From IMG/VR virus record IMGVR_UViG_3300046460_000097: a stretch of DNA of 64,000 nucleotides. One strand, given 5' to 3'. Positions 17,169-54,570 of this stretch are shown one piece after another; the first letter of the stretch is position 1; every line of letters starts with the position of its first letter. The position numbers and the translations under genes are program-made. Under the pieces are notes generated by a model. It was given only the letters and a program-made list of their open reading frames with translations, ran no database searches and was not told the origin of the DNA. This DNA is from a virus. Taxonomy: Duplodnaviria > Caudoviricetes.

Positions 17169-17222
17169 CCTAGGAGGGGGAAACCCTTCCTAGGTTACTA
17201 TGTTTATTTTTTTTTGTTTTTT
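17169..17222 (+). terminator. Intrinsic terminator
   Basis: cctaggagggg-gaaa-cccttcctagg-like stem followed by a long T tract. Confidence 0.8.
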
Positions 17223-17263
17223 AAGTTACATTCTTTTTCAAGTCTATATTACTTGTGGGATAA
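17218..17263 (+). promoter_or_regulatory. Bipartite early-type promoter (copy A)
   Basis: TTTTTAAGTTACA-N12-TCTATATTACTTGTGGGATAA; contains the phiKZ early consensus TATATTAC; near-identical copy at 53194-53239. Confidence 0.75.
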
Positions 17264-17306
17264 AGATAATCAATATCTTTCACTTATATCTCTGGAGTAA
17301 TACATT

Positions 17307-17654
17307 ATGAACGCACGTCTCTCTGCTGCTGACCTCGCTGCCATCAACTCGATGAACATCGAAGGTTCCCGCGATAGTGGTATTAACGTTGGTCAAGTTT
17401 GTGGCGTTGTTGGCGGTGTCCTCGGTGGCCTCGCTGCTGTATCTCGTGGTGGTTCTGTCGGTGGTGCAATCGCCGGTGCCGCTGCTGGCGCGGCTGTAGG
17501 TTACGCTGCTGGTACCGTATTCGGTCCTGCTGAATGGTTCGGTACTACTGGCAAGATCCTGTCTGGCGCTGCTGCTGGTCTGGTAGGCGTGGGCGTAAGC
17601 TCGAACGTTGCCGCACTGGTTGACTGCTTTGTAAACCCAGACGTAGCTATCTAA
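17307..17654 (+). CDS. Glycine-zipper small membrane protein
   Basis: 115 aa, GGAG RBS, hydrophobic G/A-rich segments with GxxxGxxxG patterns; homologous to the C-terminal domain of 53297..54523. Confidence 0.75.
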   Translation: MNARLSAADLAAINSMNIEGSRDSGINVGQVCGVVGGVLGGLAAVSRGGSVGGAIAGAAAGAAVGYAAGTVFGPAEWFGTTGKILSGAAAGLVGVGVSSNVAALVDCFVNPDVAI

Positions 17655-17668
17655 AGAACATAAAGAGT

Positions 17669-17700
17669 AAAAGGAGGCTAACGCTTCCTTTTATTTTTTG
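17669..17700 (+). terminator. Intrinsic terminator
   Basis: aaaaggaggc-taac-gcttcctttt plus T tail. Confidence 0.75.
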
Positions 17701-17719
17701 TCTAATAATAGGTGATGCC

Positions 17720-18079
17720 ATGCTGCTCAAATTACACACCGCTACTGCAATGGGTGCAAGTGTTATTGATCAGATCGTCGATTATTTCAAAGGCTTGATC
17801 TTGACTGATAACTGGCCTGAGTTAATCCGCAAGCCAGATGAATTGATCACTGAGTTAGATGCTGTAGTCACGGCAGACGACTTTGAAGCTGTATTAGAGA
17901 ACCACCATGCCTTCTTGTACGTCGGTACTAAGGAAGCGCTCCCACGAGCCTTTGCGACCTTCTACAAGGATCAACCGTTTAAAGATTGGATCATTCTGTT
18001 CAAACGGAAGGATGACAAGCAAGCCGACCCAATCTACGTGTTCTCTACACAACCGCTACAGCAAAGAACATTACATTAA
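17720..18079 (+). CDS. Hypothetical protein
   Basis: 119 aa, AGGTG RBS, flanked by hairpins. Confidence 0.55.
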   Translation: MLLKLHTATAMGASVIDQIVDYFKGLILTDNWPELIRKPDELITELDAVVTADDFEAVLENHHAFLYVGTKEALPRAFATFYKDQPFKDWIILFKRKDDKQADPIYVFSTQPLQQRTLH

Positions 18080-18083
18080 GTAA

Positions 18084-18125
18084 TAGACCCTGGGTATCCG
18101 GGGTCTACCTTTTAGTTTATTTTTT
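18084..18125 (+). terminator. Intrinsic terminator
   Basis: tagaccctgg-gtat-ccggggtcta followed by T runs. Confidence 0.7.
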
Positions 18126-18191
18126 TCTGCATCTAGCCTTTTATAGGAAACACGAGTTCCTATCTCCTCAATCGAATAGAGAGAAGTATCC

Positions 18192-18809
18192 ATGTCCCTC
18201 AGCGAAAAATATGCACACCTTACCAACAGCGAAGTTGCCCAACTGCTGGCCAACCAACGCTTCGTGGCTGTCGGTCAACGCGAACGTCGTTTCGAAAACA
18301 TCCTGATCCCTTTCGGTGATCAACTGAACGAGCTGGCGCGTTTCCGCCTGACCGCTCAAGCTACCCCGACCGTACCGACCCCGATCGAAGTTCCACTGAT
18401 GACCGTCGAAGCTGTGCTGTCGCAGATCGCCGGCCTGGAAACTCTGGACGATCTGGCCAAAGCCTACATGACTCTGCTGATCGAACAGTCCCCTCAGTCT
18501 GCCGACAACACCGACGTTGTCAGCGCCATCAGCGACATGAAGAGCCGTGCGCTCAGCGTGATCGAACTGGACTTCAAACCAGAGCCGGTAACTCCTGCTC
18601 CGACTGAAGAAGAACTGGTTGCTCGTTATGAAGCAATCACCGATCTGAACACCCTGGAAAGTGTGCTGTCGATCGGCGAGTCTGATCTGGTGCAATCCAG
18701 CGTTACCGAGATGGCACTGCGTGTACACGACGCTGTAGTGGCTTCCATCCCTGCTCCAGAAGCACCAGTTGAAGAACCAACTGGCGGTGAGGAAGAGCCG
18801 GCTCAGTAA
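18192..18809 (+). CDS. Acidic hypothetical protein, probably highly expressed or virion-associated
   Basis: 205 aa, codon bias like the MCP gene, E/P-rich C-terminus. Confidence 0.65.
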   Translation: MSLSEKYAHLTNSEVAQLLANQRFVAVGQRERRFENILIPFGDQLNELARFRLTAQATPTVPTPIEVPLMTVEAVLSQIAGLETLDDLAKAYMTLLIEQSPQSADNTDVVSAISDMKSRALSVIELDFKPEPVTPAPTEEELVARYEAITDLNTLESVLSIGESDLVQSSVTEMALRVHDAVVASIPAPEAPVEEPTGGEEEPAQ

Positions 18810-18829
18810 TCCGGTCAACCGGCCATAAG

Positions 18830-18863
18830 GCTACCCCTACTCCTTTGCGGGAGTAGGGGTAGC
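18830..18863. terminator. Bidirectional terminator
   Basis: gctacccctactcc-tttgcg-ggagtaggggtagc between convergent genes. Confidence 0.8.
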
Positions 18864-18885
18864 TTCAGGTCTTTTCTTTTTTGCT

Positions 18886-21870
18886 TTATGCACCTTTCCA
18901 AGGGTTGTAGTTAGGATCGGTTGGATCGTCACTACCCGCTTTGGAACCATCGACAGGAGGCTCTTCTTCTCCTTCTGCCTTCTCTTCACCCTCTACAGGT
19001 TCAGCAGGTGGCTCTTCACCGTCTGCTGGAGGAGTCTCACCATCAGGCATCGGTGGCGGCTCATCTACATTGACAGTGCTGTCATCAGGCTCACCAGTGC
19101 CAGCGAGGTCGTCGTCACCCGTAGGCTCCACGTCATCCGGTTCACCAGTACCGCCTAGGCCGCCTTCGTCACCCAAAGGTTCTTCAGGTGGAGCGTTGGC
19201 TGCCAGCTTCTTGTCGATCTTGCCTTTGTATTCCTTGAGCAGCTTGCCGTCAGCATCGGAACGCTCAATGATAAGCTTGGCCACAAAGTCAGCAACGTTG
19301 TTACGCTGGTGAACGATATGGTGTACCAAGGAAGCAATACCACCGCCTTTACCTTCGTTGACAATCTCATCGAACGGCATTGGCAGGTTGAATCGCTTGA
19401 AGGCCTCAGTCTTCAGTACAGACTTGATCATGGCCTTGATCTCATCCGCAGAGAAGTCTTCTGCCTCAATACCCAGCAACTTGATCATCTGAGCCATGAC
19501 CACCCCAGTACCCGACAGCTCTTCCCACGACGCCACCAGCTTATCTACCGCTTCCAGACTCTCAATGAGTTTGTTGGTGGTTTCAGTGCTGGTAGGTACA
19601 GGCAGCGTGCAGTAGATGGAGTTGAAGAAGTCAGCCAGAATAATCTTGACCTTAGCTTCATCCTCACCTTCAATCACTTCCTTACTGTCAGGAACCCACA
19701 TCTTCTTGTTGTCGAGAACACACTGTACCAGCGCTTGCATCAACGGACCGTTTACACGAGCATGCTTACGCTGGAAGTCGATCACGAAGTTAGCGATCTC
19801 GGTCTGCCAGTTCACCGCTTGGTTGAAAACCATTTGGTGTTCGGTAATAGCTTCGATCTGGAAGTTGTTCTGATCGTCGCTCACATCCAGCCATGCACGA
19901 GGCAGGTTGAAGTAGTTGGCGATCGAGTTCAACACAGCATCACGGCTAGCGGTATCTACCGCGTGGAAGTTGTCCTTCTGCTTACCTGTGGTTTGAATGT
20001 CAGGAGTAGGCAGGTGAACGTTATCCCCGGCATTAACCTTTACCGACAACGAGGATTCTCGCAGGGCATCAACAATAGACGGAACAGACAACTGAGCCGT
20101 AGACAACAGACTGTGCAACCGCGGGTTAGCCTCAAAGAAGGTAGCCCGAGCAATAGCAATGGTGGCCTCAGGGTCCGCATCCTCCTTCTCCACGTTGATA
20201 GTCATCTCGGTGTGAGGTTGGGCGGCTTCAAGGTTAGCCAAGGCGTCAGCGAGGTCGTAGGCAGCCAGACGAGCGATGTGCATCTTGGCCGACTGAGTCA
20301 ACGACTGACCAGTACCCAGGCGGTTGAACTTCAGAGCGCCGTAAGTAATAGCCTCACCTGGAACATACAGGCAGCGCACACCCTGACGACGCCAGAGACG
20401 GGACAAGAAGATCTTGTTGGTTTCTTCGTCAATAGTGACACTGACGGAGTCGCCTTTACCGCTCACGACTGAAGACACGAACCGACGGATCAGACTGCTT
20501 TGCGCAAGGTCGATGAACTCGCGCATGTCGAAGTCACATGGCTTGCCTTCCTGAACCATCCGCAGACTGGAGATCAGACTGTTGTCGCTACCGTTCTTGG
20601 GCTTGTTAGCCACTTGATCGGCTTGGGCCTTGGTTGACTGATAGAAGTCAGGATCAACCGTGGTCTTCAGGAAGTTACCCTGATCGTCAAGCAGAATGAT
20701 GTAGTCGTCGATCTGACGGCTAGAACCGTTGTGGTGAATTGGGATAACCGCTTCACTAGGAATGTGCCAGCTCAGGCCACGACCGTAGGGTGCTACCGAC
20801 AGAGTGTCGATTGGCTTAACGTACTGCATGGTCTGATGGCGGATATCACGAGCCTTGTAGATCTCGCGGTTAATCGCTTCCATCTGATCTTCGGTCAAGT
20901 TCTGAGTAGTAGCGTCAGGACCGTCTGCCGTCTTCGCTTTCTTCTTCTTGTCACTTTGCATGGCAGAAGAGATAACGAGGTCGAAACTCTCGACACCCAT
21001 GATCGAGTTAATGTCCTGATCCCGCACTGCTTCGTTGAACTTCTGCAGATAAAGGATAGCCGGGTTATCGGTCAGGGTGATCTTGAACAGGTTGTCCGGA
21101 TCTTCTTCTTTACTGAAGATGTTGAACTCGGTGCCGTTGTAAGCAGGACGGTCACCCAAGATCGCTTCCAGACCACTGACCGCATTCTTGTCAGCAGCCG
21201 AATGCGGATCACGAACGAAGAAGCCTTTGTTACGCGCTCGCTTGACACCACTGACATCCACGAACTCGTGGTCAAGGTGTTGCTTAGCCTGTAGGCGGAA
21301 GGCTTCGTTACCCGTACGACCTTCAGGGCTATTTGGATCAGCGGCAGAACCGTTAATCAAATAATCCAGACCTGGACGACTGAGGTTAAACAGAACATAA
21401 CTCCCTGTATTCCACAGGATGTCATTGATCATTTTACCCAGTTCTGGCTCGATCTTATAGTCGTTGGTGAAGTAATTATCCCACACCGTCAACAACTCGG
21501 CGTGGAGACCAGCATTCTTCAGCTTCGTCGTTTGAGTGTCGTAGGTCAACACTTTGTCTTGCTTACCGTTAGGGTAGAGCAGGATGGTGTTCCAAATCAG
21601 CTCAGCTTTATCAATGTACGGCGTGATAGCCCGCAGATCGGTACTGGCATTGATGTTGTTGCTGATGATGTCACTCAAGCGTTGCAGCTTGTAAGGATTG
21701 ACAGTTTCTCTACCTTTGCCTTCATTGGCATCAGGAGTTTGGCCATTTTTGGGAACCGCGTTGCGCAGAGTGGCAGCAATGGCGGGGGATACGGATTTAA
21801 GATCTTCACGAATTCTCGTGTAGTCAACCCGTTCATTCCCTCTTGTCGTACCGCGTGTTTCGAACCCCAT
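18886..21870 (-). CDS. Probable portal protein (phiKZ gp129-like)
   Basis: Start reassigned to ATG 21870 (GAGG RBS), about 994 aa with an acidic Pro-rich disordered C-tail. Portal call rests on size and recalled synteny. Confidence 0.6.
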   Translation of the reverse strand: MGFETRGTTRGNERVDYTRIREDLKSVSPAIAATLRNAVPKNGQTPDANEGKGRETVNPYKLQRLSDIISNNINASTDLRAITPYIDKAELIWNTILLYPNGKQDKVLTYDTQTTKLKNAGLHAELLTVWDNYFTNDYKIEPELGKMINDILWNTGSYVLFNLSRPGLDYLINGSAADPNSPEGRTGNEAFRLQAKQHLDHEFVDVSGVKRARNKGFFVRDPHSAADKNAVSGLEAILGDRPAYNGTEFNIFSKEEDPDNLFKITLTDNPAILYLQKFNEAVRDQDINSIMGVESFDLVISSAMQSDKKKKAKTADGPDATTQNLTEDQMEAINREIYKARDIRHQTMQYVKPIDTLSVAPYGRGLSWHIPSEAVIPIHHNGSSRQIDDYIILLDDQGNFLKTTVDPDFYQSTKAQADQVANKPKNGSDNSLISSLRMVQEGKPCDFDMREFIDLAQSSLIRRFVSSVVSGKGDSVSVTIDEETNKIFLSRLWRRQGVRCLYVPGEAITYGALKFNRLGTGQSLTQSAKMHIARLAAYDLADALANLEAAQPHTEMTINVEKEDADPEATIAIARATFFEANPRLHSLLSTAQLSVPSIVDALRESSLSVKVNAGDNVHLPTPDIQTTGKQKDNFHAVDTASRDAVLNSIANYFNLPRAWLDVSDDQNNFQIEAITEHQMVFNQAVNWQTEIANFVIDFQRKHARVNGPLMQALVQCVLDNKKMWVPDSKEVIEGEDEAKVKIILADFFNSIYCTLPVPTSTETTNKLIESLEAVDKLVASWEELSGTGVVMAQMIKLLGIEAEDFSADEIKAMIKSVLKTEAFKRFNLPMPFDEIVNEGKGGGIASLVHHIVHQRNNVADFVAKLIIERSDADGKLLKEYKGKIDKKLAANAPPEEPLGDEGGLGGTGEPDDVEPTGDDDLAGTGEPDDSTVNVDEPPPMPDGETPPADGEEPPAEPVEGEEKAEGEEEPPVDGSKAGSDDPTDPNYNPWKGA

Positions 21871-21891
21871 ATAAACCTCACGAGTTAAACT

Positions 21892-24174
21892 ATGAATAGT
21901 GTCGATCTTGATCAGTATTATGCGGACACTTTCAGCCTTGTTCGGACCATGGTTATCAAAATCGAGGCCTTGGCCGACAGAGATAACTTGGTACTGACTA
22001 AAGCTGGGCATCCCGTATCCACGGATAAAACATCGTGGCGTTATTACATGAACTTGAATGGAGACTACCACCCCACCGATGAGGTGATGTGGATCAACTC
22101 CATTGATACCGGTGAGCAGATTGTTTTCAACAAGGATAGCTTGTTGCTGCACCTCGCAACGAATCGCGAGTACAGTAAAGGAGGCTATTGGTTCAACCGT
22201 TTGGTCGAACGCTATCCTGGGCAGTCTACTCTGATTAACGGCATACTCTCGCCCATCCCGTACTCCGAGACGATCGAGGCTAAAGACTATAAGATCCTGC
22301 GCTACAACAAGAAATTAGTGTTGTGGAACGAGGATCAGCTCATCAAGAAATTGCAGCTGTTTGTGGACAGTGACGTGAGTCATTCGTTCAAGAACGACTA
22401 CATTACGACTGATGACTTGTTCTTGCCGTTGATGATTGAGAAGTTGCACATCGATGTCATGGGTGCAATTCATGCGATCCGCCTAGAAGATTGTTTTACT
22501 CGGCATACGCACGAGTTCTTCATCTGGAGCCACATCGATTCTTTCGGTGATTTCTCCCAGTACAAGGCCAGTCTCTCCAAAGAACAGACCATGTGGCTGT
22601 TCCGCAACATCGCTTGGATCCGCAACAACCCAGGCCAGCAGTACACCTTTAATAAGCTGATGCACAACATACTGACTCGCGCCAGTGTGCCATTGGCTAA
22701 GTTCGACATGGTAGAGTCCACTGAAACTCAGTTGGAAGATTTAACCCCTACCCCTCTGTACCGTCGGATGCAGATGAACCTTATCGATACTTACGGGCGC
22801 GCTGCCACGTTTATCGATACCGAAGCCATGATCCTGAAGCAACAGATGGAGGCTACGGAGAACTACGACCAGACCGCTACCTATCTGGAAGATGCTCTGG
22901 TCAAGGGTACGTACAGTCTGCACTCTGAGCTGCCTACCAAAACGCTTGAGTCGGCTATGGCTGACTACACCAACCGACACATCGATACATTGATGAAGGT
23001 GGTGTACAACGAGTGGATCTACTTGGCGGGTAAGAAGGTCTATCAAGGCAACATCATTACCGTGGACCCCAAGACGGGTAAACAATACCGTTTCCCGGTA
23101 GCTGACGCCTACCACATCTGGAAGTTCCTCGTCGAGCACAGTAAGGGTGAAAGCCCCCTGCGTATCTGCAAGGTCTACTACCAGAACGTGTTGAAGTTAA
23201 AAGCACCAACCGTTGAGCAGCTCATTGAGATCGGGGGTCCCGATTTCATTCGTCCTTATGTGGCTCAGGACATTCGCAATATTTGGGCGCCTGTTACCCC
23301 ATTTGTGTCCCCGGATTATCTGATCCAGTACTCTACCGAAGTCTACACGAACATGTGGAAACATCGGAAGCTGTACAGCAAGTGGTATGACTTGAACCTG
23401 CGGGCAAGGGCCAAGAACACCTGTGACTTCATGTACGACTCGGGGATCATCAAACTCGGGAACTACACCAATTACGACTCGTTGCTGGAAACCTACGAGC
23501 TCGACTTCAGTGAATACACTGCGGCCGAAGCCAAGGCCTTTGCTTGGGACATCTTTAAACGTGTCACAGGCTGGGATACCAACCAGCATCCGTCTACTCG
23601 GGTCAAACAGGCTGACTTGATTGCGATCATGACACAGCTGTCGTCTTACACCGTGCAGTTCGTTAAGAAGATTGACGACGGTACGGATCAGACAGAGCTG
23701 AAGAACGATCTGTTCGTTGGCGATAGCCGTTGGGTGGGCCAAGGTAACGGTAGCTATGGCGATTTCAAACACGTCATGCTCAACGTGGACACCAACAACG
23801 ACGCAAGCAACGCCCTGAAGTCTGTTACAGCTGTTATAGACTCTTACCAGCCTAAGCTAGTCGTTGATATGGCTGCGAAGGCAACGATCGTTACACACGA
23901 TCTGGTGAAGTCTGTCGACGTCATCAAAGACCTGCGTATCAATGCGTTGAAGTTCCCAAACACTGGACACATCCGAATCCTCACGGAAGAAGAGTTCCAG
24001 CCTAAGGAGATTCCAGGTACGTACTACGGCGAACTGTTTGCTGACCCAGTCGAAATCCCAGGCACCTATTACGGGGAACTGGAAGAAGACGTGATGGGTG
24101 CTTACCAGTACTCGTTCCCTGAAACGTATTACAAAGTCCTGAAAGCTAACGGCGACCTTGACCTCGGAGAATAA
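21892..24174 (+). CDS. Virion structural (baseplate-like) protein
   Basis: 760 aa, divergent from the portal candidate; C-terminal EIPGTYYGEL repeats. Confidence 0.6.
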   Translation: MNSVDLDQYYADTFSLVRTMVIKIEALADRDNLVLTKAGHPVSTDKTSWRYYMNLNGDYHPTDEVMWINSIDTGEQIVFNKDSLLLHLATNREYSKGGYWFNRLVERYPGQSTLINGILSPIPYSETIEAKDYKILRYNKKLVLWNEDQLIKKLQLFVDSDVSHSFKNDYITTDDLFLPLMIEKLHIDVMGAIHAIRLEDCFTRHTHEFFIWSHIDSFGDFSQYKASLSKEQTMWLFRNIAWIRNNPGQQYTFNKLMHNILTRASVPLAKFDMVESTETQLEDLTPTPLYRRMQMNLIDTYGRAATFIDTEAMILKQQMEATENYDQTATYLEDALVKGTYSLHSELPTKTLESAMADYTNRHIDTLMKVVYNEWIYLAGKKVYQGNIITVDPKTGKQYRFPVADAYHIWKFLVEHSKGESPLRICKVYYQNVLKLKAPTVEQLIEIGGPDFIRPYVAQDIRNIWAPVTPFVSPDYLIQYSTEVYTNMWKHRKLYSKWYDLNLRARAKNTCDFMYDSGIIKLGNYTNYDSLLETYELDFSEYTAAEAKAFAWDIFKRVTGWDTNQHPSTRVKQADLIAIMTQLSSYTVQFVKKIDDGTDQTELKNDLFVGDSRWVGQGNGSYGDFKHVMLNVDTNNDASNALKSVTAVIDSYQPKLVVDMAAKATIVTHDLVKSVDVIKDLRINALKFPNTGHIRILTEEEFQPKEIPGTYYGELFADPVEIPGTYYGELEEDVMGAYQYSFPETYYKVLKANGDLDLGE

Positions 24175-24177
24175 CAC

Positions 24178-24582
24178 TTGAACATACAGGTGCTAAGTCT
24201 TATCAAGCAGCGGTATTGCGAGGACAACGCCATCAGTGACCCTGAGTCGATTGCAATGTCCTTCTGCCAAGCGGAGAAGGGCACCGGCAACCCCATCATG
24301 TTTGTACTACGTGATGGGAAGTCGTCGACCTACGTTCACCAGCGGATCGACCTAGCAGGTTTGTCCGCTCATCGGGCTTTGGATATTCCTGCCGCATTCC
24401 GCAACGTTAAACAAGCCGATCTCAGCAAAGTGTTCATTGCAGATTGGGTTTACCAGTTCACGGGACACCGTATTCTGGTTGAAGACATACAAACCATGGC
24501 GCTAGAGAAAAAGGCTATTCAGGTGATCATTTCACCGGATTCTATGCGCTTTAAAAATAGCTTCCAGCTAATCCGTCTATAG
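24178..24582 (+). CDS. Hypothetical protein
   Basis: 134 aa, TTG start after GGAG, fills the operon gap. Confidence 0.55.
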   Translation: MNIQVLSLIKQRYCEDNAISDPESIAMSFCQAEKGTGNPIMFVLRDGKSSTYVHQRIDLAGLSAHRALDIPAAFRNVKQADLSKVFIADWVYQFTGHRILVEDIQTMALEKKAIQVIISPDSMRFKNSFQLIRL

Positions 24583-24595
24583 GGATTTTTTCATT

Positions 24596-25525
24596 ATGGC
24601 TCTTTCTGCAACAGAAATTCAAGACCAGAACCGTTCCGAGGTTCCTACTCAGTCGGTAACCAACACTGGCTGGGGGAACATCATCACCAAATGCGTGGTT
24701 ACTCGCCAACCGTTTAACCTCCCACAATACACCACGCTGAACGAGCGCTACAACATCCTGGCGACCCAGTCCATCGGGCCGAAGAACGGTAAGGACTTCG
24801 AACTGAAGTACTTTGGTGTGGGTATCCGTGGTTCCGACTGCGATGGCAAGAACCTCCTTGGCGCTACCAAGATGAAGGTCAACCAGCACCAGCCGAAAGA
24901 CGCCAACCTGTTCGTGCCGATCCCGTTCGCCTGCCGTCCAGTTGCCAGCGACTTCGACAACGTCAACCGCGGCAAGTACCGCATGCGTACCGTTCAAGAC
25001 GTCAACGGTGTGGCCACCGCGTTCTATTGGTTGAAGCTGATCAGTTTCGCCAACTACAACCCGCAGGTCATGGTTATTACCCGTGACGAGAACAACAACG
25101 AAACGCCAGTTCCGTACATCCCTGAGAAAGACGACCTGTTCAACCCAACCCCGGTCGACTTCATCAGCACTGGCTCGGTGCCTATCAGCAACGTCTACAT
25201 GAACAGCTCCGCTATCCTGGACTGCTCGTTGGACCAAGCCGACCTGACCGAAATGGAAAACGCCTGCCGCATTCTGTACGGCGATGCTTCCCTGGCTGCA
25301 CCGAACGAAGTGGGCATTGCCTACGGCATCGACACCCAGACCGACGGCCAGATCGGCCAAGGCGCCGTGATTCGCTACACTGAAGTACTGAGTGCTGTCT
25401 ATGCTCACTACATCACTGAGCGCGATGCACGTTCCGCCCTGAACAACGTTCGTCTGCAATACGCATTCGACCACGGCGCCAGCGAACCAATGCTGTTGCA
25501 CACCAACGCCACTGTCGCACCTTAA
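24596..25525 (+). CDS. Conserved virion structural protein
   Basis: 309 aa, high-expression codon bias, in the tail/baseplate operon. Confidence 0.6.
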   Translation: MALSATEIQDQNRSEVPTQSVTNTGWGNIITKCVVTRQPFNLPQYTTLNERYNILATQSIGPKNGKDFELKYFGVGIRGSDCDGKNLLGATKMKVNQHQPKDANLFVPIPFACRPVASDFDNVNRGKYRMRTVQDVNGVATAFYWLKLISFANYNPQVMVITRDENNNETPVPYIPEKDDLFNPTPVDFISTGSVPISNVYMNSSAILDCSLDQADLTEMENACRILYGDASLAAPNEVGIAYGIDTQTDGQIGQGAVIRYTEVLSAVYAHYITERDARSALNNVRLQYAFDHGASEPMLLHTNATVAP

Positions 25526-25541
25526 TCGGGAGAGTTCATAA

Positions 25542-26162
25542 ATGAGCATTCCTGATATCCTGAAAGGGGGCGTTCATTTGCCCCTGACGGTTAGCACCAC
25601 TTCGGCTCAAGCTATCGCTTTGGCTAACGGGTTCTACCAGACCGAGTTAGATGTTAACGACTACAAGGAGACACAAGCCTTCTGGGGAGTCGATAACGTC
25701 TTACAGCTGGATCTCATCGATCCGGAGTCTGGCGAGGTGCTGGAGAGCTTCTACAACCGTTCTACGGGGAATAAGCTCAGTGCCGCAGCAGAACCAATGC
25801 TGATGCTCAGTAATCCAATGGATCCAAGCCAGTTTGTTTCCTGGATGGGTCCTGTGATTGTCGTGCATGACGCAAAGGAGCTGGAGTTCCTCAGCGGATT
25901 GGGCTCGGGTAATACCTATCCAATCTTCGGCGTAGACAACAACATTCCGTATCAGTTGTCGTCTTTGCTGAACTCCTACCAATTTATTGGTAGCTGGGTG
26001 TCCGGTACTATGGGTGAATATGCAACTGGTGGTTTCACTCTGGTCTATCTCGGCCCAAGCAGCGAAGCCCCAGAAGAACTCCTGGTGGACTACTCCCCCA
26101 ACATTGCCGTGATCCAAATCAACCACGGTGAACAAAAAGGATACATATGCCTGAGGACGTAA
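25542..26162 (+). CDS. Hypothetical (probably virion) protein
   Basis: 206 aa, GGGAG RBS. Confidence 0.55.
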   Translation: MSIPDILKGGVHLPLTVSTTSAQAIALANGFYQTELDVNDYKETQAFWGVDNVLQLDLIDPESGEVLESFYNRSTGNKLSAAAEPMLMLSNPMDPSQFVSWMGPVIVVHDAKELEFLSGLGSGNTYPIFGVDNNIPYQLSSLLNSYQFIGSWVSGTMGEYATGGFTLVYLGPSSEAPEELLVDYSPNIAVIQINHGEQKGYICLRT

Positions 26163-26737
26163 AAGTCCCCCACACGGTAAGGGTCATGGGAATTGACCCT
26201 TCTCCGACCAATACGGGGGTGTTCGTTGTAGATGTCAACATCGCTGAGCCAGCCCCGTTTGTTATGGTGTATGGCAACACATTGTTCGGCGAGAAAGTTC
26301 TCTACGACGTTCCTGTTCAGTTTGATGACACCGCTTCAACGGGTGTCAGTGCGCGTGGCTTTTGTTTAGCGCGCTCGTTAGGTACCCTCATCGAAATTTA
26401 TCAACCCGACGTTGGTATTTGTGAAGATAACTACTTAGGGGTTTCTGCGGGAACCTTTAAACAGTTGATTCAGTTCGTCGGACTGGTGAGGGAAAGCTTT
26501 AACAACAATGGCGTGCATTTGTCCTATGTACTACCTAACTTGGCCAAGGCAATTGTCGGGGCTAACTTCAAGGGATCGCAGAAAGAAGATGTCCGTGCAG
26601 GGTTGCTGAAGTATCCGCTGTTAGATGCAAATGGGTTTGACCTGTCACTGCTGGATGAGCACTCCGTCGATGCTGGCGCGGTAACTCTCTATCGGTGTGA
26701 ACAAATTGCCAAAAACTATGGGGTGTATCATGGCTAA
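26147..26737 (+). CDS. ruvC: RuvC-like Holliday junction resolvase
   Basis: N-terminal VMGIDPSPTNTG motif, GICED glutamate, C-terminal EHSVDA motif. Confidence 0.8.
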   Translation: MPEDVKVPHTVRVMGIDPSPTNTGVFVVDVNIAEPAPFVMVYGNTLFGEKVLYDVPVQFDDTASTGVSARGFCLARSLGTLIEIYQPDVGICEDNYLGVSAGTFKQLIQFVGLVRESFNNNGVHLSYVLPNLAKAIVGANFKGSQKEDVRAGLLKYPLLDANGFDLSLLDEHSVDAGAVTLYRCEQIAKNYGVYHG

Positions 26738-27128
26738 GTTAGAAGATCCCCCGCCAGAAGTCACCACCGACCCTCCGAGCGTGGATCCGGTCTCTGGTGG
26801 GATTGAGCGTGAGCTCTTTGGTATGTGGACCATCCTCCTGCGCAACGTAGGCGGTTTTACCGCAGTCATTACTGCGTGTGTTATTGCTGTGTTCAACGCC
26901 TTCACTACTTACCAATCGGTTAAGAGTGGCGGGCAGTGGCCATCTGAGATGTCGTTGTTTATCACCAACATCGGCCCGGTCATCGTGGGCTGGACGTTCA
27001 TGAACTCCAGTAAGACGATTTCAACTATCATGCAGGTTAAGGGTGTTACTGACCGACTGCGTAATAGCTTGTCTACCGCACTCGCGACTAAAGACAAGAC
27101 AGATCCACCTCCACCGCAACAAGCGTAG
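26730..27128 (+). CDS. Two-TM membrane protein, holin candidate
   Basis: 132 aa from ATG 26730; two hydrophobic segments and a hydrophilic C-tail; converges on the spanin pair. Confidence 0.45.
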   Translation: MAKLEDPPPEVTTDPPSVDPVSGGIERELFGMWTILLRNVGGFTAVITACVIAVFNAFTTYQSVKSGGQWPSEMSLFITNIGPVIVGWTFMNSSKTISTIMQVKGVTDRLRNSLSTALATKDKTDPPPPQQA

Positions 27129-27140
27129 CAAACATATCTT

Positions 27141-27180
27141 AACCCCCTCCAGGAGCCCTTGTGAGGCTCCTGGAGGGGTT
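27141..27180. terminator. Bidirectional terminator
   Basis: cccctccaggagcc-cttgtga-ggctcctggagggg between convergent genes. Confidence 0.8.
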
Positions 27181-27237
27181 ATTAAGGTATTGCTTCCCGT
27201 TATTACCCGTTACATCCTGTTACGTTCAATCACGGTA

Positions 27238-27882
27238 CTACTTCGGCGGATCACCCAGTGAGTTTCTAGGTACTGGGAGTTCACGCTGTACCGGGGCCAC
27301 CGGAATGGCCTGTTCTGGGACCTTAGGTCCGGGCTGATCGGGCATAGGGTTTGGATTAACCGCAGTAACAGTTCTCGATATCATGGACTTGACACTGTCG
27401 GGTATCGTGGAGTTGTTCTTTCGCTCCAGTCCTTTAATGATCGTGTTAATGTTGTCCGTCAACTGACCTATAGTTCGCTTGGCAGCCCAATTATTCAGAG
27501 AAGCGTCATCAAGTTGTCGCGTTACATCAATCAGCCTCATGAGCGTCAATTGGTAACAATACTTTTTGTCGGTCGCTGTAAGGCAATCATTGCTAGCTAA
27601 GAAGGCTGCCAAATCCCCAGACAAACTAGCTGGGGGAAGCGGACTTGCGTTCTGAAACTGGGGAAGCACCTCGGTCAGTCGGGTTCTCGTAGCTGCCAGC
27701 TGGTTTTTGTAGCTGTCGATCTCGACTTGCAGCGCCTGCGCCTGAAGGTATGTCGTCGCTTCGGACACGGTTGTCTGGTGACTGCACGCCGATATTGATA
27801 ACAGTAGGAGTAGGAGGAGGCCCGCCAGGATTGTACTGGTGACCGCCCGGGTAAGAGTCGATATCGATAGTGTCGGTCCCAT
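27238..27882 (-). CDS. Outer-membrane lipoprotein, o-spanin (Rz1-like) candidate
   Basis: Signal peptide ...ILAGLLLLLLLSISA-C with lipobox ISAC, Ser after Cys, Pro-rich C-terminus; starts inside the upstream TM/coiled-coil gene in another frame. Confidence 0.65.
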   Translation of the reverse strand: MGPTLSISTLTRAVTSTILAGLLLLLLLSISACSHQTTVSEATTYLQAQALQVEIDSYKNQLAATRTRLTEVLPQFQNASPLPPASLSGDLAAFLASNDCLTATDKKYCYQLTLMRLIDVTRQLDDASLNNWAAKRTIGQLTDNINTIIKGLERKNNSTIPDSVKSMISRTVTAVNPNPMPDQPGPKVPEQAIPVAPVQRELPVPRNSLGDPPK

Positions 27883-28174
27883 AGCGACCGAGAAGTTGTT
27901 TGTAAGCATCACCGCGCTCCGATTGTTGGAGGGCTAACGTCTGGCTCAGAGTCGTATTGAGACTGGCCGTCAGCTTGCCCTGGGATTCCAGATTGTCGGC
28001 TGCACGCTTAACTTGCTCGCCGACTTCCTTGAGGGTCGAAAGTGTCTGTTTATCCAGCGTGCTATCAGAATGCCGTGGGAAGGCCCACGAAGCCAAGATA
28101 GCACCCAAGATCAAAGTGCCAAGCAGTAAGCTGGCAATCGATCTCAACTTGTCCGTGAAAAACATATCTCTCAT
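27626..28174 (-). CDS. Inner-membrane spanin (Rz-like) candidate
   Basis: ATG 28174 after AGAGGA; one N-terminal TM helix (IASLLLGTLILGAILASWAF) then a coiled coil; overlaps the lipoprotein gene by 257 nt. Confidence 0.65.
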   Translation of the reverse strand: MRDMFFTDKLRSIASLLLGTLILGAILASWAFPRHSDSTLDKQTLSTLKEVGEQVKRAADNLESQGKLTASLNTTLSQTLALQQSERGDAYKQLLGRYGTDTIDIDSYPGGHQYNPGGPPPTPTVINIGVQSPDNRVRSDDIPSGAGAASRDRQLQKPAGSYENPTDRGASPVSERKSASPS

Positions 28175-28178
28175 GTGG

Positions 28179-30283: not shown

Positions 30284-30293
30284 GGAACGGGAT

Positions 30294-40477: not shown

Positions 40478-40485
40478 TAAGGTTG

Positions 40486-44007: not shown

Positions 44008-44024
44008 TTTTAAACCTATATTAC
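44008..44024 (+). promoter_or_regulatory. Early-type promoter
   Basis: ttttaaacctatattac with TATATTAC at 44017-44024. Confidence 0.7.
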
Positions 44025-44029
44025 TAGTG

Positions 44030-44406: not shown

Positions 44407-44410
44407 GTAA

Positions 44411-45758: not shown

Positions 45759-45764
45759 TAAGAC

Positions 45765-45803
45765 CCTTAAGTACCGGTGGGTAACTCCACTTGGTACTTA
45801 AGG
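45765..45803 (+). terminator. Terminator hairpin
   Basis: ccttaagtaccggtgg...ccacttggtacttaagg followed by T-rich sequence. Confidence 0.7.
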
Positions 45804-45838
45804 CCTTTATTACGCATTTTGATTTTTAAGAGGCTGTT

Positions 45839-49505: not shown

Positions 49506-49521
49506 TCCTTAACCTCTATAT

Positions 49522-49549
49522 GCCTGTCGAGTTTAATTACTCGGCGGGC
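49522..49549 (+). terminator. Hairpin
   Basis: gcctgtcgagt-ttaatt-actcggcgggc. Confidence 0.5.
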
Positions 49550-49572
49550 TATAGCTATGTGGAGTGTTCTTT

Positions 49573-50559
49573 ATGGCTATTAGCAAAGCAACCGTACTTT
49601 TGGACGGCGTAGAAGTTTCTCCAGTCGATACCGAGCACATGCCTAACCCTGACGGTAACGGTCCTGACTGGGTGCCGATTGGTGGCGTGTTCAGTTTGTT
49701 CGAAGTGGAGCTTAAAGGCTACGTGCTTCGGATGTGTCTGGACAGTGAGTCCTTGGTTGATCTGGACTCTGAACACAAGTTCTTTAAGCGACTGGCTATG
49801 TGCGACGATGATCTTCCGGATGCGCCTTGCATCTTGGCTGATATCGTTTTGATCAACTCGCAAATCGTCGACAGTGCGTTTGCCGGTGTCAGTACGTTTA
49901 CTAACGTCGTTCTTGAAAACTGCTGTGTGGTTAACTCCACTATGCTGTACAACGAGAGGTGGGGCAACCTGCAATTCAGGACGATCAAGAACGCCCTTAT
50001 TGAAACGTGTTATCTCGAAGATAACACGATCCGTAGTTCGTGCCGTGCGCTTACCTTGCGTAACAGCAGCTTGGTCGGCAACGATATCGAAAACCATGGT
50101 GTGGGTATTCTCATTGAGGATAGCACCATCGATAACTCCACCTTTGACGTGGGGAATGTCTTCGATATCTACACCAGCGTTCTGAGCAACGTTGTTCTGA
50201 CGGTGAAGGGCTTCATGCGACTCACCAATCAGCGCTTGGAGAATGTTGAGTTCCACGCCGACAGCTTGGACCTTTACAACAAGTTCTGCTCGTTCTCGTT
50301 GGAACTTGATACCGGGCGGTTGCAGTTCCATATGGCCCGTACTGACAGTGGTGCTCTTTCGATGGAAGGGTACGAAGACGTCATTGATGTGGATGATCCG
50401 GATTACAGGGAGAAATTGATTCGCCTGTTGAAACATTCTGGTCACCCTATCCCTGAAGATGTGGCCGAGTATATTGATGCGTGTGTTAAATCACGTCTCA
50501 GTGTACTGAAGAAGATTGATGACGCTAAACAGGCGGAGTTCATGCGAGCATTGGAATAA
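49573..50559 (+). CDS. Beta-helix-like repeat protein, paralog of the upstream gene
   Basis: ATG 49573 after GGAG; periodic I/V-x-N/D-S pattern; shares the NKFC motif and the terminal SR..V.K..D.A helix with 47841..49505. Confidence 0.6.
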   Translation: MAISKATVLLDGVEVSPVDTEHMPNPDGNGPDWVPIGGVFSLFEVELKGYVLRMCLDSESLVDLDSEHKFFKRLAMCDDDLPDAPCILADIVLINSQIVDSAFAGVSTFTNVVLENCCVVNSTMLYNERWGNLQFRTIKNALIETCYLEDNTIRSSCRALTLRNSSLVGNDIENHGVGILIEDSTIDNSTFDVGNVFDIYTSVLSNVVLTVKGFMRLTNQRLENVEFHADSLDLYNKFCSFSLELDTGRLQFHMARTDSGALSMEGYEDVIDVDDPDYREKLIRLLKHSGHPIPEDVAEYIDACVKSRLSVLKKIDDAKQAEFMRALE

Positions 50560-50569
50560 GAGAGATGAA

Positions 50570-51058
50570 ATGAGCAAATCAAAACCAGACACTATTGTTT
50601 ACAAGGTGCATACCGATGGCAGTGCCTTGGGCAATCCGGGGCCTGGTGGTTATGCGTTGGTAGTGAGATGCGGAGACGCGGAGGTCGTCACACTCTCGAA
50701 AGGCTACTTCAAAACAACAAACAACCGGATGGAATTGCTGGCCATCATTGTGCTGCTGGAGACTTACGGAGCCCCGGGGAACTTCTTTGACGTATACACG
50801 GATTCGATGTACGTCATTGATGGGGCTACGAAGTGGCACAAGAGTTGGGCTAGAAATAACTGGATCACTTGGCGGACTCAACAGCCCGTCAAGAATGCCG
50901 ACCTGTGGAAGCGCGTAGAACCTCTGTTGAAAGCTAACAAGGTGAAGTTCACGCACGTGCGCGCTCACACAGGTATTCCGGATAACGAAATGGCGGATAA
51001 GCTAGCCAAGGAAGCGGCAGCGGCTCCTACCGAAATCGACGAAGGCTTCATGGGGTGA
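50570..51058 (+). CDS. rnhA: Ribonuclease HI
   Basis: TDGSALGNPGPGG, TNNRMEL, TDSMYV, KNADLW, HVRAHTG..DNEMADKLA. Confidence 0.95.
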   Translation: MSKSKPDTIVYKVHTDGSALGNPGPGGYALVVRCGDAEVVTLSKGYFKTTNNRMELLAIIVLLETYGAPGNFFDVYTDSMYVIDGATKWHKSWARNNWITWRTQQPVKNADLWKRVEPLLKANKVKFTHVRAHTGIPDNEMADKLAKEAAAAPTEIDEGFMG

Positions 51059-51061
51059 TGG

Positions 51062-51460
51062 ATGAATCTATTAACCGCAAAGATGGTGGTACAGCGCTTT
51101 CACGGGTTGAGTTACGGGGAAGCGCTGAAGGTAGCCGAACACAGTGAAGGGATCTTGGCACAGATGGATGTGCATGATCCCGCATGGGCGCGTTTTAATA
51201 AGGAACGCTATGACATGTACCGACTGTGTGAGGCACATGACGAGCTGTCTGAGAATAAGCAAAACCACCACTTGGTTGAGTTCTGTTGTATTGTATCGTA
51301 TGATAAAGGTAGCGTAACCAAAGAAGTTACGTACTGGATCAACAAGAACGTCAACCCCCGCGACTACGTTAAAGCCGCCCAGGAACAATGTGTTGAAAAC
51401 TTGCATAAAGCAAAGGTTAAACACGATGTCTGGAAGGACCTCGAAATCGTGCCTGTTTAA
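51062..51460 (+). CDS. Hypothetical protein
   Basis: 132 aa, in the operon between RNase H and DHH. Confidence 0.6.
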   Translation: MNLLTAKMVVQRFHGLSYGEALKVAEHSEGILAQMDVHDPAWARFNKERYDMYRLCEAHDELSENKQNHHLVEFCCIVSYDKGSVTKEVTYWINKNVNPRDYVKAAQEQCVENLHKAKVKHDVWKDLEIVPV

Positions 51461-51471
51461 AAGGACTGCTC

Positions 51472-52359
51472 GTGACTTCACCTAATAATCACGTTGTATG
51501 TATTTACCACGATCACTGCTTGGATGGTATCGCAGCTGCGTGGGTGGTTTGGCGACATTTCAAAAACCTCGGGTTGGAGATCACTCTGATTCCCGGGGTT
51601 TACAATAAGCCGCTGCCAGAAGGTTTGGCAGGCAAGACTGTTTTCGTTGTCGACTTCAGCTTTGACCGTGAGAAGACGGAGTGGTTGATTGAAAACACCA
51701 ACCTGGTTCTGCTCGATCACCACAAGTCGGCTAAGAAGGCGCTCCAAGGCTTGTGTGAGGTCGATCTGACTTATTCTGGTGCGATGCTAGCTTGGCGGTA
51801 CTTCAACCCCAACACGCCGGCTCCAGAAGCTATCCGTTACGTTGAAGATAACGACCTGTGGAAGTTTACCTACCCTAGCACCAAAGCGTGGGTAACTGCG
51901 GCGTTCTCTTATCCGCTGACCGTAGAGATCTTCGACTCGTTGGTTAACCGTGATCCACTGGACATGGTAGCCGAGGGCGAAACCCTTCTGCGTAAACAGC
52001 GGCAGGACATTAAGCGTATCTTGCACAATACCCGGACCATGATTGTTTTCGGTATGGAAGTTCCGGTGATTAACGCCAACATCATGTTCACATCTGATCT
52101 TGGCGATGCCTTGTACCACGTCTATCCGCTGGTTGTGATTTACTCCGACCAAGCCGACGGACGTAAGTTCTCGTTCCGCAGTAAAAAGGTTACAGGTTAT
52201 CCGGTAAACGAGATTGCTGAATATTTCGGTGGCGGCGGCCATGGTGAAGCAGCAAGTTTCACGCTTCCATTCTCTGATAAGCGTTTCGCCAAATCGCACA
52301 TGATGTTGAACCGGTCTATCTGGGACTGCGTCAAGTTGTACTTCAAGAACTTGTTCTAA
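51472..52359 (+). CDS. DHH/DHHA1 family phosphoesterase (NrnA/NrnB-like)
   Basis: YHDHCLDG, VVDFS, LLDHHKSA, VEDNDLW and DHHA1 GGGGHGEAAS motifs. Confidence 0.9.
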   Translation: MTSPNNHVVCIYHDHCLDGIAAAWVVWRHFKNLGLEITLIPGVYNKPLPEGLAGKTVFVVDFSFDREKTEWLIENTNLVLLDHHKSAKKALQGLCEVDLTYSGAMLAWRYFNPNTPAPEAIRYVEDNDLWKFTYPSTKAWVTAAFSYPLTVEIFDSLVNRDPLDMVAEGETLLRKQRQDIKRILHNTRTMIVFGMEVPVINANIMFTSDLGDALYHVYPLVVIYSDQADGRKFSFRSKKVTGYPVNEIAEYFGGGGHGEAASFTLPFSDKRFAKSHMMLNRSIWDCVKLYFKNLF

Positions 52360-52371
52360 AGGAAGACAAGA

Positions 52372-52821
52372 ATGGAGCTCAATTATAGCTACGTCAGCGT
52401 CCAACTCAAATCCGAGTTTCAAGCTGATGTAATCGCTCGTTTACTGGAAGCCGGTATTACACCGGAGTCTAAGCACGAGTTGCACTGCACAATGATCTAT
52501 GACGACCGCGACATTGAGAAACCTCTCTGTGCCTTGTTGCCAGAAAAGGAATTCACCGCGAGCATCATTAAGCTGGAACCTTTGGGCGACGGCATCGTTT
52601 TCCATTTGACTGGTAAGGAACTGAACGATGAGTTCCGCCGGTTGAAGGATGCGGGCTACCAGCACTCGTTTGGTACTCCCCTGTTTCACATGTCGTTGAA
52701 GTATGACTTCGACAAATACGACATCATGGCAATCAATGCGGCCTTCTCTGATTGGATGGGGCGCCAACTGGTTTTCAACAACGAATGCTTCGGCTACAAG
52801 AAAGTTAAGAAGGCAGCATGA
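52372..52821 (+). CDS. acb1: 2H phosphoesterase, Acb1 (T4 gp57B)-like anti-CBASS nuclease candidate
   Basis: 149 aa with two HxT/S motifs (LHCTMIY at H38; HSFGTPLFHMSLKY at H106); size and spacing resemble T4 57B (IHSTICY; HDFDDYTPHITLSY). Confidence 0.7.
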   Translation: MELNYSYVSVQLKSEFQADVIARLLEAGITPESKHELHCTMIYDDRDIEKPLCALLPEKEFTASIIKLEPLGDGIVFHLTGKELNDEFRRLKDAGYQHSFGTPLFHMSLKYDFDKYDIMAINAAFSDWMGRQLVFNNECFGYKKVKKAA

Positions 52822-53129
52822 TGACCAACAACCCATTCCACAGCAAGTTCATGGCCGGAAGCAAGGCTAACATTGTTAATGCATTCTCCGTTAAAGAGAA
52901 CATTGGCAAAACTGTTGAGTTAATACAGTTCGTACCTCCGGGTACTTCTGCGTTCTACCGCGATGGCTACTTCGATGGTCATGAAGGTGGTTGCTGGATT
53001 GTTAAGGGTGAAGATCTGATCCGTTGTACTGAGGGTGGTAACATCCCAAGCCCTATCTGTGCTGTTGATCCATTGCACCTCGAATTGAACCACGTAGCAA
53101 CCTTGCGCATGCGTACCAAGACAGCCTGA
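52818..53129 (+). CDS. Hypothetical protein, paralog of 54624..54995
   Basis: ENIGKTVELIQFV...YRDGYF...GCWIVKGEDL. Confidence 0.65.
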   Translation: MMTNNPFHSKFMAGSKANIVNAFSVKENIGKTVELIQFVPPGTSAFYRDGYFDGHEGGCWIVKGEDLIRCTEGGNIPSPICAVDPLHLELNHVATLRMRTKTA

Positions 53130-53135
53130 TCTACT

Positions 53136-53171
53136 TATACCCCTACCAGCCTCCGGGTTGGTAGGGGTATA
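53136..53171 (+). terminator. Terminator hairpin
   Basis: tatacccctaccagcc-tccg-ggttggtaggggtata. Confidence 0.75.
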
Positions 53172-53193
53172 GGGTTATAATTGCTTTTCGTTA

Positions 53194-53239
53194 TTTTTAA
53201 GTTACAGTTAATCTCACGTCTATATTACTTGTGGGATAA
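53194..53239 (+). promoter_or_regulatory. Bipartite early-type promoter (copy B)
   Basis: TTTTTAAGTTACA-N12-TCTATATTACTTGTGGGATAA, identical core to 17218-17263. Confidence 0.75.
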
Positions 53240-53296
53240 GTCATAAAGATTAATTGCATTGACAGTTAATCGAATTCACTCGATAGGAGTCGCACC

Positions 53297-54523
53297 ATGA
53301 ACGATCGTAACTCGGCTGTTGACCACATGGTTAAAAACATTGTGGGCGTTATTACTGAACTTCGCTCTAAAGGTTCTGCCCAGGATGTACAGCTGGGTTA
53401 CCTGAAAGGCAAGTTGTTCGATGCTGAATTCGTTGACCCTGCACAGCGGCCACATCTGCTGAAGCTGGTTAACAAAGGTCTCGGCACCAACTGGTCGATG
53501 AACAACGTCAAACGTGCAGACCTCAGTCTGTCCGAACAAGGCGATGCTGTTCTGATCCAAGTCGATACCAAACACGTAATCGTGGATGAACTTCACGGTT
53601 CCGTAAACCTCGGTGGTACTGGCCCTCAAGAAGCCAGCTTCATCGAGAAAGCTCCTGCTATCACCGGCGATGCTCAAGCAGCCATTGAGCAAAGCCAAGC
53701 AACTGCAGCACCGGCTGACACCGCTTCACAAGCAGCGCCTGCTGCAGCTGTTCAACAACAAACTCAAACCACTTCTGCTGACAAGGATAACACCATGAAA
53801 AATTCCAACGCTAACACCGCTACCAACAACACCAACGAAAACCTGGCTCAAGGCACCACTGAACAAGTGGAGTTCCTGATGGGCTGCCAGATGGTCGGTC
53901 GCAATACCGCTGAACTGCGCTGCATCGCATGGCAGGGTTTCCTGGGTAACGTGGTAGGTCAACCACACGCTGAAGCTTTCAACGAGTTCAGCAAGGCATC
54001 CGACTCCCAGGACACCGACACCATCATCTTCAACTTCTGCGACCAGAACTCCGAAGTCGGCAAGCAGTTCATGGGCTGGATGATGATCAACCCTGTGACC
54101 GCAGCCACCGACGCCGAAGTTGCAGCAATGTCGAAATCGCGCTTCAGCATCATGGGCGATCGTGACGAAGGCATCCGCACCTCCTGGGTCGCTGCCGGTG
54201 CAGCAGTAGTCGGCGGTGGTCTGGAAATGACTGCACGCGGCGGTCTGACTCTGGGCGCCGGTTTGGGCACTGTAGTCGGTGGCGTTGCAGCATTCTTCGC
54301 TGGCGAGCAAGTTGATCAGCACGTTGAAGGCCAGTTCGGTCGTTACGTTGCTGGTGGCGTGATCGGCATGGGTCTGGGCGCTCTGGGTGCGGCCGCTGGT
54401 CGTGCAATGCTGCCGGGTAAAGCTGTCAGCGGTTTCGGCGGTGGTGACACAGTTCCTGAGATCGGTGGCCAACCAGTACCGGCTCTGCCAGCTGGCGCGG
54501 TGAACTTCTCAGTCCAACTGTAA
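53297..54523 (+). CDS. Multidomain protein with C-terminal glycine-zipper membrane domain
   Basis: 408 aa, AGGAG RBS, A/Q/T-rich linker, C-terminal G/A-rich hydrophobic helices homologous to 17307..17654; possible internal start at 53795. Confidence 0.75.
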   Translation: MNDRNSAVDHMVKNIVGVITELRSKGSAQDVQLGYLKGKLFDAEFVDPAQRPHLLKLVNKGLGTNWSMNNVKRADLSLSEQGDAVLIQVDTKHVIVDELHGSVNLGGTGPQEASFIEKAPAITGDAQAAIEQSQATAAPADTASQAAPAAAVQQQTQTTSADKDNTMKNSNANTATNNTNENLAQGTTEQVEFLMGCQMVGRNTAELRCIAWQGFLGNVVGQPHAEAFNEFSKASDSQDTDTIIFNFCDQNSEVGKQFMGWMMINPVTAATDAEVAAMSKSRFSIMGDRDEGIRTSWVAAGAAVVGGGLEMTARGGLTLGAGLGTVVGGVAAFFAGEQVDQHVEGQFGRYVAGGVIGMGLGALGAAAGRAMLPGKAVSGFGGGDTVPEIGGQPVPALPAGAVNFSVQL

Positions 54524-54538
54524 TCCGGACTGATGTAA

Positions 54539-54570
54539 AAGGGGGATCTTCGGATCCCCTTATTTTTTCT
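54539..54570 (+). terminator. Intrinsic terminator (UUCG loop)
   Basis: ggggatc-ttcg-gatcccc followed by ttattttttct. Confidence 0.85.

Follow-up and report, generated by a model that had tools for sequence, protein, structure and literature searches.

Nucleus-forming jumbo phages start infection inside a lipid vesicle. To our knowledge, no phage-encoded membrane protein has been tied to this vesicle stage, or to early changes of the host envelope, in these phages. The question arises whether two genes in a stretch of 64,000 nucleotides of viral DNA (Duplodnaviria; Caudoviricetes; IMG/VR record IMGVR_UViG_3300046460_000097; the whole stretch is called the window here) encode proteins of this kind. 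Gene A (17307..17654, + strand, 115 aa) and gene B (53297..54523, + strand, 408 aa) had been singled out in a reading of the letters alone (the sequence-only reading) as a duplicated, insulated early cassette encoding glycine-zipper membrane proteins. We were interested in establishing whether the two proteins are related, how their genes are organized and distributed among phages, and what the proteins might do.

The answer we favor, to which we give about an even chance of being right, is that A and B are paralogs of ancient origin in one module only, that they are confined to the branch of nucleus-forming jumbo phages resembling Pseudomonas phage EL and Erwinia phage RisingSun, and that they would be made early, insert into a membrane, associate with themselves, and serve in envelope change or in recruitment. 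The firmer part of this answer, as judged from sequence, is that A and B are two conserved monocistronic units with a distantly homologous module, an early-class promoter and a design for high expression.

The common module spans about 85-95 residues. It starts with the motif G-x-R-[DE]-x-G-[IVF], which reads G-x-R-D-x-G-I in the two window proteins, and continues with three Gly/Ala-rich helices full of small-xxx-small repeats. A and B are about 30% identical over the module only, and BLASTP between them is not significant (E 0.14-0.22). Profile-profile alignment gave a different picture. With a B family of 14 sequences, the hhalign probability was 88% when the A family held 3 sequences, 93% when it was deepened to 12, and 96.3% with 28 (E 1.5e-9, 94 columns). 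The real score of 46.7 compares with a mean of 11.9 (standard deviation 2.4, maximum 23.3) over 200 column shuffles of the B module and with 17.7 for the reversed alignment, and these two controls led us to reject a chance or compositional similarity. Furthermore, in hidden Markov model (HMM) searches of single genomes the A profile matched ORF127 of EL (E 4e-6) and a B homolog in G011 (E 3e-5), and the B profile matched ORF082 of EL (E 8e-4). The homology proposed in the sequence-only reading is thus borne out by the profile alignment, with controls far lower. Its register, which set SMNIEGSRDSGI of A against FSIMGDRDEGI of B, followed by RGG, is exactly that chosen by hhalign at every profile depth; its pairing of A's G-K-xxx-G with the C-terminal GRAMLPG of B did not hold, since hhalign places that segment of A on the invariant G-R-Y-V-A-G of B (348-353).

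The pair belongs to a coherent group of phages. The window (50.8% G+C) carries jumbo-phage genes for a major head protein, an RNA polymerase (RNAP)-type 'polymerase' and several virion proteins. Its DNA is also present in a 105.6 kb IMG/VR contig, and 20 DNA sequencing runs from soil, rhizosphere, wetland, estuary and sediment contain the locus or part of it. We compared it with nine related contigs of 214-232 kb, five of which have terminal repeats; all nine have one A and one B homolog each, on the same strand and about 37 kb apart. The complete relative G004 encodes a 672-aa protein matching the 'nuclear shell protein' family (E 2.4e-115), and the clade is taken as nucleus-forming because of this chimallin-family protein. 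The gene directly before A encodes a protein of 780 aa that shares 38% identity with ORF081 of EL and 29% with the RisingSun homolog of ORF081. In EL, the A-type homolog is ORF082 (CAG27176.1), directly after ORF081, and the B-type homolog is ORF127 (CAG27221.1); in RisingSun they are gp87 (ASU03583.1) and gp122 (ASU03548.1), respectively. These homologs are like the window genes in synteny, with A after the ORF081-type 780-aa gene, and in promoter type, leader hairpin and a terminator after the gene, whereas their identity to the window proteins is low (about 30% for A, about 25-35% for B) and the module of gp122 is more degenerate. They are named only hypothetical proteins.

More widely, the A family comprises 28 representative clusters among 1.84 billion proteins, all of 104-153 aa; the longer contigs of its members measure 209-241 kb, and the only product name is again 'hypothetical protein'. 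Klebsiella phage phiKp_32 has three tandem A-like open reading frames (ORFs) directly after its ORF081 homolog (L066/L070/L071; record positions 80118-81313), one of which is also matched by the B-family profile (E 1.1e-4). Weak A-like matches were found in Erwinia AH04, Aeromonas AerS_266 and OBP. A blastn search of both loci against the phage collection gave no match, nor did tblastn of A, the latter probably owing to low-complexity masking. We found no description of the A/B pair in the literature and no paper with both 'glycine zipper' and 'jumbo phage', which agrees with the earlier statement that none was known. Because both genes occur in the nine relatives, EL and RisingSun, the sequences indicate an old, clade-restricted pair and not a recent duplication. 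The two genes would be domain-level paralogs kept paired across genera, and the idea of a duplicated cassette has to be given up. As a separate observation, a giant ORF on the - strand of G004 (19944-27956; L031) has a weak match to helices 1-2 of the A profile (E about 0.003-0.007 per genome). The matching part is a short pair of Gly/Ala-rich helices (LILGGLLGGLATY...MAGGAAVAVGY), and the match may be compositional only; similar ORFs of about 2,340-2,730 aa are present in other relatives and in Shewanella phage FishSpeaker.

Each of the two genes is predicted to be its own monocistronic transcription unit, all of whose elements lie on the + strand. At gene A, a terminator hairpin with a T-run (17165..17198; 15-bp stem, -28.3 kcal/mol, z -6.5) ends the unit of the 780-aa gene; it is followed by the early-type promoter (17218..17263), a leader hairpin of the transcript (17262..17280; AAAGATA / TATCTTT), a GGAG Shine-Dalgarno sequence at 17294-17297, the gene, and a second terminator hairpin with T-run (17660..17701; -21.9 kcal/mol, z -6.6). 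At gene B, the hairpin closing the upstream unit lies at 53134..53173 (18-bp stem, -34.8 kcal/mol, z -6.3), the promoter at 53194..53239 (core 53221-53228), the leader hairpin at 53248..53271 (GATTAATTG / CAGTTAATC), an AGGAG Shine-Dalgarno sequence at 53285-53289, and a terminator hairpin with a UUCG loop and T-run downstream of the gene at 54540..54561 (-15.3 kcal/mol). Hairpin energies were compared with those of shuffled sequence, and z is about -6 for the first three flanking hairpins. With the major head gene of the window as reference for the codon adaptation index (CAI), B ranks third (0.605) and A fourth (0.574) among 55 window ORFs, the median being 0.37. Both ORFs, the terminator-like hairpins that bound them as single-gene units and their high-expression codons are therefore as the sequence-only reading had described them.

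The promoters of A and B belong to a known class. The pattern TTTTTAAGTTACA-N12-TCTATATTACTTGTGGGATAA occurs exactly twice in the window, at 17218-17263 and 53194-53239, with 0 mismatches, and none is expected from 100 shuffles; the 22 identical nucleotides claimed around the core are indeed there once the preceding G is counted. The core itself, TATATTAC, occurs four times in the window, always on the + strand, against 0.46 expected. At gene A the promoter is made of an upstream box, TTAAGTTACA, a T-rich spacer ending in TTTCAAG, the core (17245-17252) and then TTGTGGGATAA, and it has the top score in the window with a position weight matrix (PWM); gene B has the same 46-nt pattern. This order of TACA box, T-rich stretch, TTTCAAG, core and ..GTG agrees position by position with the published consensus of N1M2, OBP and 201phi2-1. 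In N1M2, 31 early promoters were predicted with the consensus TBYAWWWWWTTTCARRYAKATATTATYWAAGTGWA (PMC7058600, Table 2), and the early promoters of OBP, 201phi2-1, EL and phiKZ (TATATTAC) are given beside them (PMC7058600). The core of the window promoters is thus identical to that of the phiKZ type, and it is the TTTYARR upstream element and the downstream ..GTG that fit the consensus of 201phi2-1, OBP and N1M2. A review places such motifs near -10 of early transcription starts and reports them as early promoters in every phage with profiled transcripts (PMC7598289), and promoters of this type are assigned to the virion RNA polymerase and to early genes in phiKZ-like phages (PMC7598289, PMC7058600). 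A sigma-70 promoter scan at both promoter sites found none, and a host-promoter reading (GTTACA-N16-TATTAC) was considered and dropped.

Since the element fits the early-promoter consensus of the phage group, the 22 identical nucleotides are mostly generic promoter. A PWM scan of G004 found 15 sites, every one of them on the + strand; in the window there are six, those of A and B and others at 11904, 44017, 55255 and 63225. The sites are intergenic, at the start of units after terminators, and number about 15 per genome in this clade, whereas 31 have been reported in N1M2. When the bipartite form was searched for strictly, each genome gave four copies, all on the same strand, and the control gave none. 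Four to five of the approximately 15 sites per genome carry the upstream TTAAG(A/T)TACA box, before unrelated genes; this extra box is unlike phiKZ-type promoters, and the virion polymerase is the presumed reader of the promoters in the window clade. The genes behind the remaining sites are likewise unrelated to A and B, and one of them (G004 site 74020) is chimallin, which is listed as an early gene in a review (PMC12908238). Another G004 site (174419) precedes B's own promoter by only about 220 nt. In the window phage, the promoter copies of A and B are more similar than the other copies, which is a subclass effect; a private A/B regulon was rejected, since this bipartite element is also found in front of unrelated genes. 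The claim that both genes follow the phiKZ early promoter therefore stands as to promoter class, though not as the mark of a regulon of their own. The promoter precedes B in all nine relatives and RisingSun gp122, EL ORF127 having its own variant, and it precedes A in seven of the nine relatives, EL and RisingSun.

The leader adds a further shared feature. A hairpin follows the core at a fixed distance, with stems that differ between phages (AAAGATA/TATCTTT, AAGAC/GTCTT, AACAAT/ATTGTT, AATGAAT/ATTCATT and GATTAATTG/CAGTTAATC). It lies at the matching position in the relatives, where the B leader can read GATTATTCG / CGAGTAATC, and in EL and RisingSun (loci L015-L019, L004-L008, L050 4766-4786 and L061 328-353). 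Single leader folds are no more stable than shuffles (z -0.6 and -1.7), so that the argument for a selected 5' structure is not one of energy but of a position kept while the stem sequences differ. On this pattern, the hairpin is likely a 5' structure of the early transcripts.

The architecture of the proteins bears on where they would act. In the AlphaFold2 (AF2) model of A (predicted local distance difference test 73), a short N-terminal helix and the G-x-R-D-x-G-I motif are followed by helices 28-46, 51-78 and 80-109. B is longer, with a helical N-domain (6-91), a disordered linker (about 92-184), a helical middle domain (188-264), the module (about 279-372; DNA 54131-54412), whose AF2 helices are 295-314, 319-342 and 346-371, and a disordered Pro-rich tail; the N- and middle domains are predicted confidently. 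There are 13 GxxxG starts in A and 7 in the B module, and invariant Gly columns are spaced i, i+4, i+8. Each module has three Kyte-Doolittle peaks with 19-residue means of 1.0-1.76, values of the size seen in transmembrane segments. Sub-threshold Pfam matches in the A family go to 'Glycine zipper 2TM' in 5 of 28 members, Gly-zipper_Omp in 3 of 28 (best E 2.6e-4) and Gly-zipper_YMGG in 2 of 28. Language-model and structure neighbors are glycine-zipper proteins, class II bacteriocins, colicin V and a viral holin cluster, all below the confidence mark and leads only. Taken together, membrane insertion of the module is plausible from these features.

In B, a Met in the disordered linker is kept across the family: it is Met167 in the window protein (ATG at 53795..53797, + strand, with AAGGA 7 nt upstream), is found in 8 of 9 relatives, and corresponds to Met123 of EL ORF127 and Met159 of RisingSun gp122 (L002-L010, L060, L051). 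Most B members have AAGGA, GAGGA or CAGGA 7-10 nt upstream of it. This suggests a candidate internal start giving a second, shorter B isoform, of 242 aa in the window, with the middle domain and zipper module. In A, residues 5-16 (17319-17354) read LSAADLAAINSM, like the LSxxELxxIxGG double-glycine leader of class II bacteriocins but without the GG, and this stretch is not conserved in other A-family members.

We propose the following scheme. The early-class promoter (virion RNA polymerase type), leader hairpin, Shine-Dalgarno sequence, capsid-like codons and terminator at each gene point to abundant synthesis right after infection. The module would most likely become embedded in the lipid bilayer, folded as a compact hairpin or bundle of helices, and self-associate through its glycine-zipper faces. 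A would be the bare module, and B would be anchored by its C-terminal part and keep two cytoplasmic helical domains at the membrane on a flexible linker of about 95 residues, possibly in two isoforms through the conserved internal start. Their role would probably be to alter the host envelope early, or to recruit a partner at the membrane, and A would co-assemble with B or modulate it.

Several results weigh against this scheme. Summed simply on the biological (Hessa) hydrophobicity scale, each helix comes to +2 to +7 kcal/mol, so that one cannot count on spontaneous or Sec-type insertion in the manner of classical transmembrane helices, and helix 1 of the B module has an invariant Glu. The window A and B proteins have no Pfam match at E <= 1, and no A-family member reaches the Pfam gathering threshold of PF05433, PF13488 or PF13441. 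Nothing significant came from Foldseek against PDB (A and B), AFDB clusters (A), VIA-align wide (B) or a PDB sequence-profile search; the best structural Z, 6.4, fell on a generic helical bundle. Homology is also affected, as a search of the whole library with the A profile returned no B proteins at E <= 0.001; the case for it consequently rests on the profile-profile and per-genome statistics, and the relation is distant and confined to the module. As for expression and spread, the promoter was not found before gene A in two relatives (L014, L020), no RNA runs were among the listed holders of the A/B locus, and HMM profile searches found no A or B match in phiKZ, 201phi2-1 or Goslar. An Atlas search with B residues 1-270 gave no usable match and PADLOC gave none. 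A complex prediction for A with the B module scored 0.00 with poorly folded chains, which is evidence neither way.

The module could instead be soluble in the cytoplasm, as a helical bundle packed through Ala and Gly or as an oligomeric scaffold that assembles by itself, with a hydrophobic look that is only compositional. The positive insertion sums for every helix, the charged residues within B helix 1 including its Glu, the lack of a signal peptide and the compact three-helix bundle of the AF2 model would all fit such a protein. They have to be set against A helices that are nearly chargeless over about 80 residues, Kyte-Doolittle means that reach 1.5-1.8, and weak Pfam links that go to membrane glycine-zipper families, and we regard a soluble module as unlikely.

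If the module does enter the membrane, it could act as a bacteriocin-like or Tse4-like pore former whose early depolarization or leak of the inner membrane leads to host shut-off or to superinfection exclusion, as T4 Imm and Sp act early at the envelope. The dense GxxxG, the early promoter class and the high-expression features are compatible with this, the nearest language-model neighbors are class IIb bacteriocins, colicin V and glycine-zipper proteins (0.87-0.88, below the 0.9 mark), and MccV (colicin V, PF17508) is weakly matched by 2 of 28 A members (E >= 0.33). On the other hand, early depolarization would starve a phage with a long, energy-hungry cycle, the large soluble part of B is left unexplained, and no bacteriocin Pfam model was matched (class II bacteriocin PF10439 found nothing in the A family) and no double-glycine leader is conserved. 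Strong exclusion would moreover be atypical, since co-infecting chimalliviruses each set up a nucleus (PMC12908238). We give pore formation a small chance.

A more specific site is the membrane of the early phage infection (EPI) vesicle. A and B may insert there, with B bridging to the nascent chimallin shell or helping to open the vesicle for genome transfer, and A assisting. These phages encode chimallin, whose promoter is of the same class as those of A and B, B is built of an anchor, a linker and domains, and both the passage of the genome from vesicle to nucleus and the proteins of the vesicle membrane are listed as open questions (PMC12908238). But EPI vesicles were described in phiKZ, 201phi2-1 and Goslar, where no homolog was detected, which argues, as far as profile searches go, against a universal role in the vesicle. 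Contact with chimallin is conjectural, and the channels for the first mRNA export must pre-exist translation; A and B are ruled out as those channels, because their own translation follows mRNA export. We therefore consider a vesicle role quite improbable. In its boldest form, A and B would be the first phage-made proteins in the EPI vesicle membrane of this branch, B's zipper anchor and linker docking the vesicle to the chimallin shell or opening it for genome hand-over, with A, and perhaps the short B isoform, tuning the step; this is a long shot.

Finally, one may read gene A as a lysis timer of the holin or antiholin type, and the TATATTAC element before it as something other than an early promoter in this clade; we hold this to be very improbable. 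In its favor, A is small, three-helix and hydrophobic, one Atlas structural neighbor is a viral 'holin family' cluster (TM 0.56/0.63), and B with its conserved dual start is reminiscent of holin/antiholin pairs. Against it, chimallin, which is known to be an early gene, has the same element in front of it, A has no sequence match to holin families, and it lies between capsid/RNAP-type and virion genes with no adjoining endolysin or spanin. With regard to the neighborhood of B, the genes on either side of its cassette (52818-53129 and 54609-54995) are paralogs of each other, both phrog_2529, and B therefore looks inserted into a small paralog array.

To return to the favored reading of early-made, self-associating membrane proteins, the A/B pair is conserved, its genes look designed for very strong early expression, and its homologs are present in the cultured, tractable phages EL (P. 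aeruginosa) and RisingSun (E. amylovora), so that location and role are open to direct experiment. Should A and B prove to be ordinary envelope modifiers or exclusion factors, the gain would lie mainly in annotation, namely a new family of phage-specific three-helix glycine-zipper proteins in two architectures and a cleaner view of early promoter and leader design in the EL/RisingSun clade.

Among known systems, T4 Imm and Sp, Tse4, CdzC/D, class IIb bacteriocins and colicin V resemble A and B in being small, in their early or autonomous expression, in hydrophobic helices rich in Gly and in the oligomerization expected of them in membranes. T4 Imm/Sp and the glycine-zipper toxins have no detectable sequence or fold relation to A/B, and the likeness is one of composition and of language-model features below the mark. 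The Pfam glycine-zipper clan (Rick_17kDa_Anti 'Glycine zipper 2TM' PF05433, Gly-zipper_Omp PF13488 and Gly-zipper_YMGG PF13441) has the same Gly/Ala helices with GxxxG or small-xxx-small spacing, and the Atlas structural neighbors of the module are YMGG-type zippers, below the confidence mark. The A/B module differs from the 2TM hairpin of these proteins in its three helices and its N-terminal G-x-R-D-x-G-I motif, and A and B, unlike them, are phage-encoded, cytoplasmically made and without a lipoprotein signal. The promoter part of this system is already known; what is new is the protein pair, a phage-specific variant of glycine-zipper proteins.

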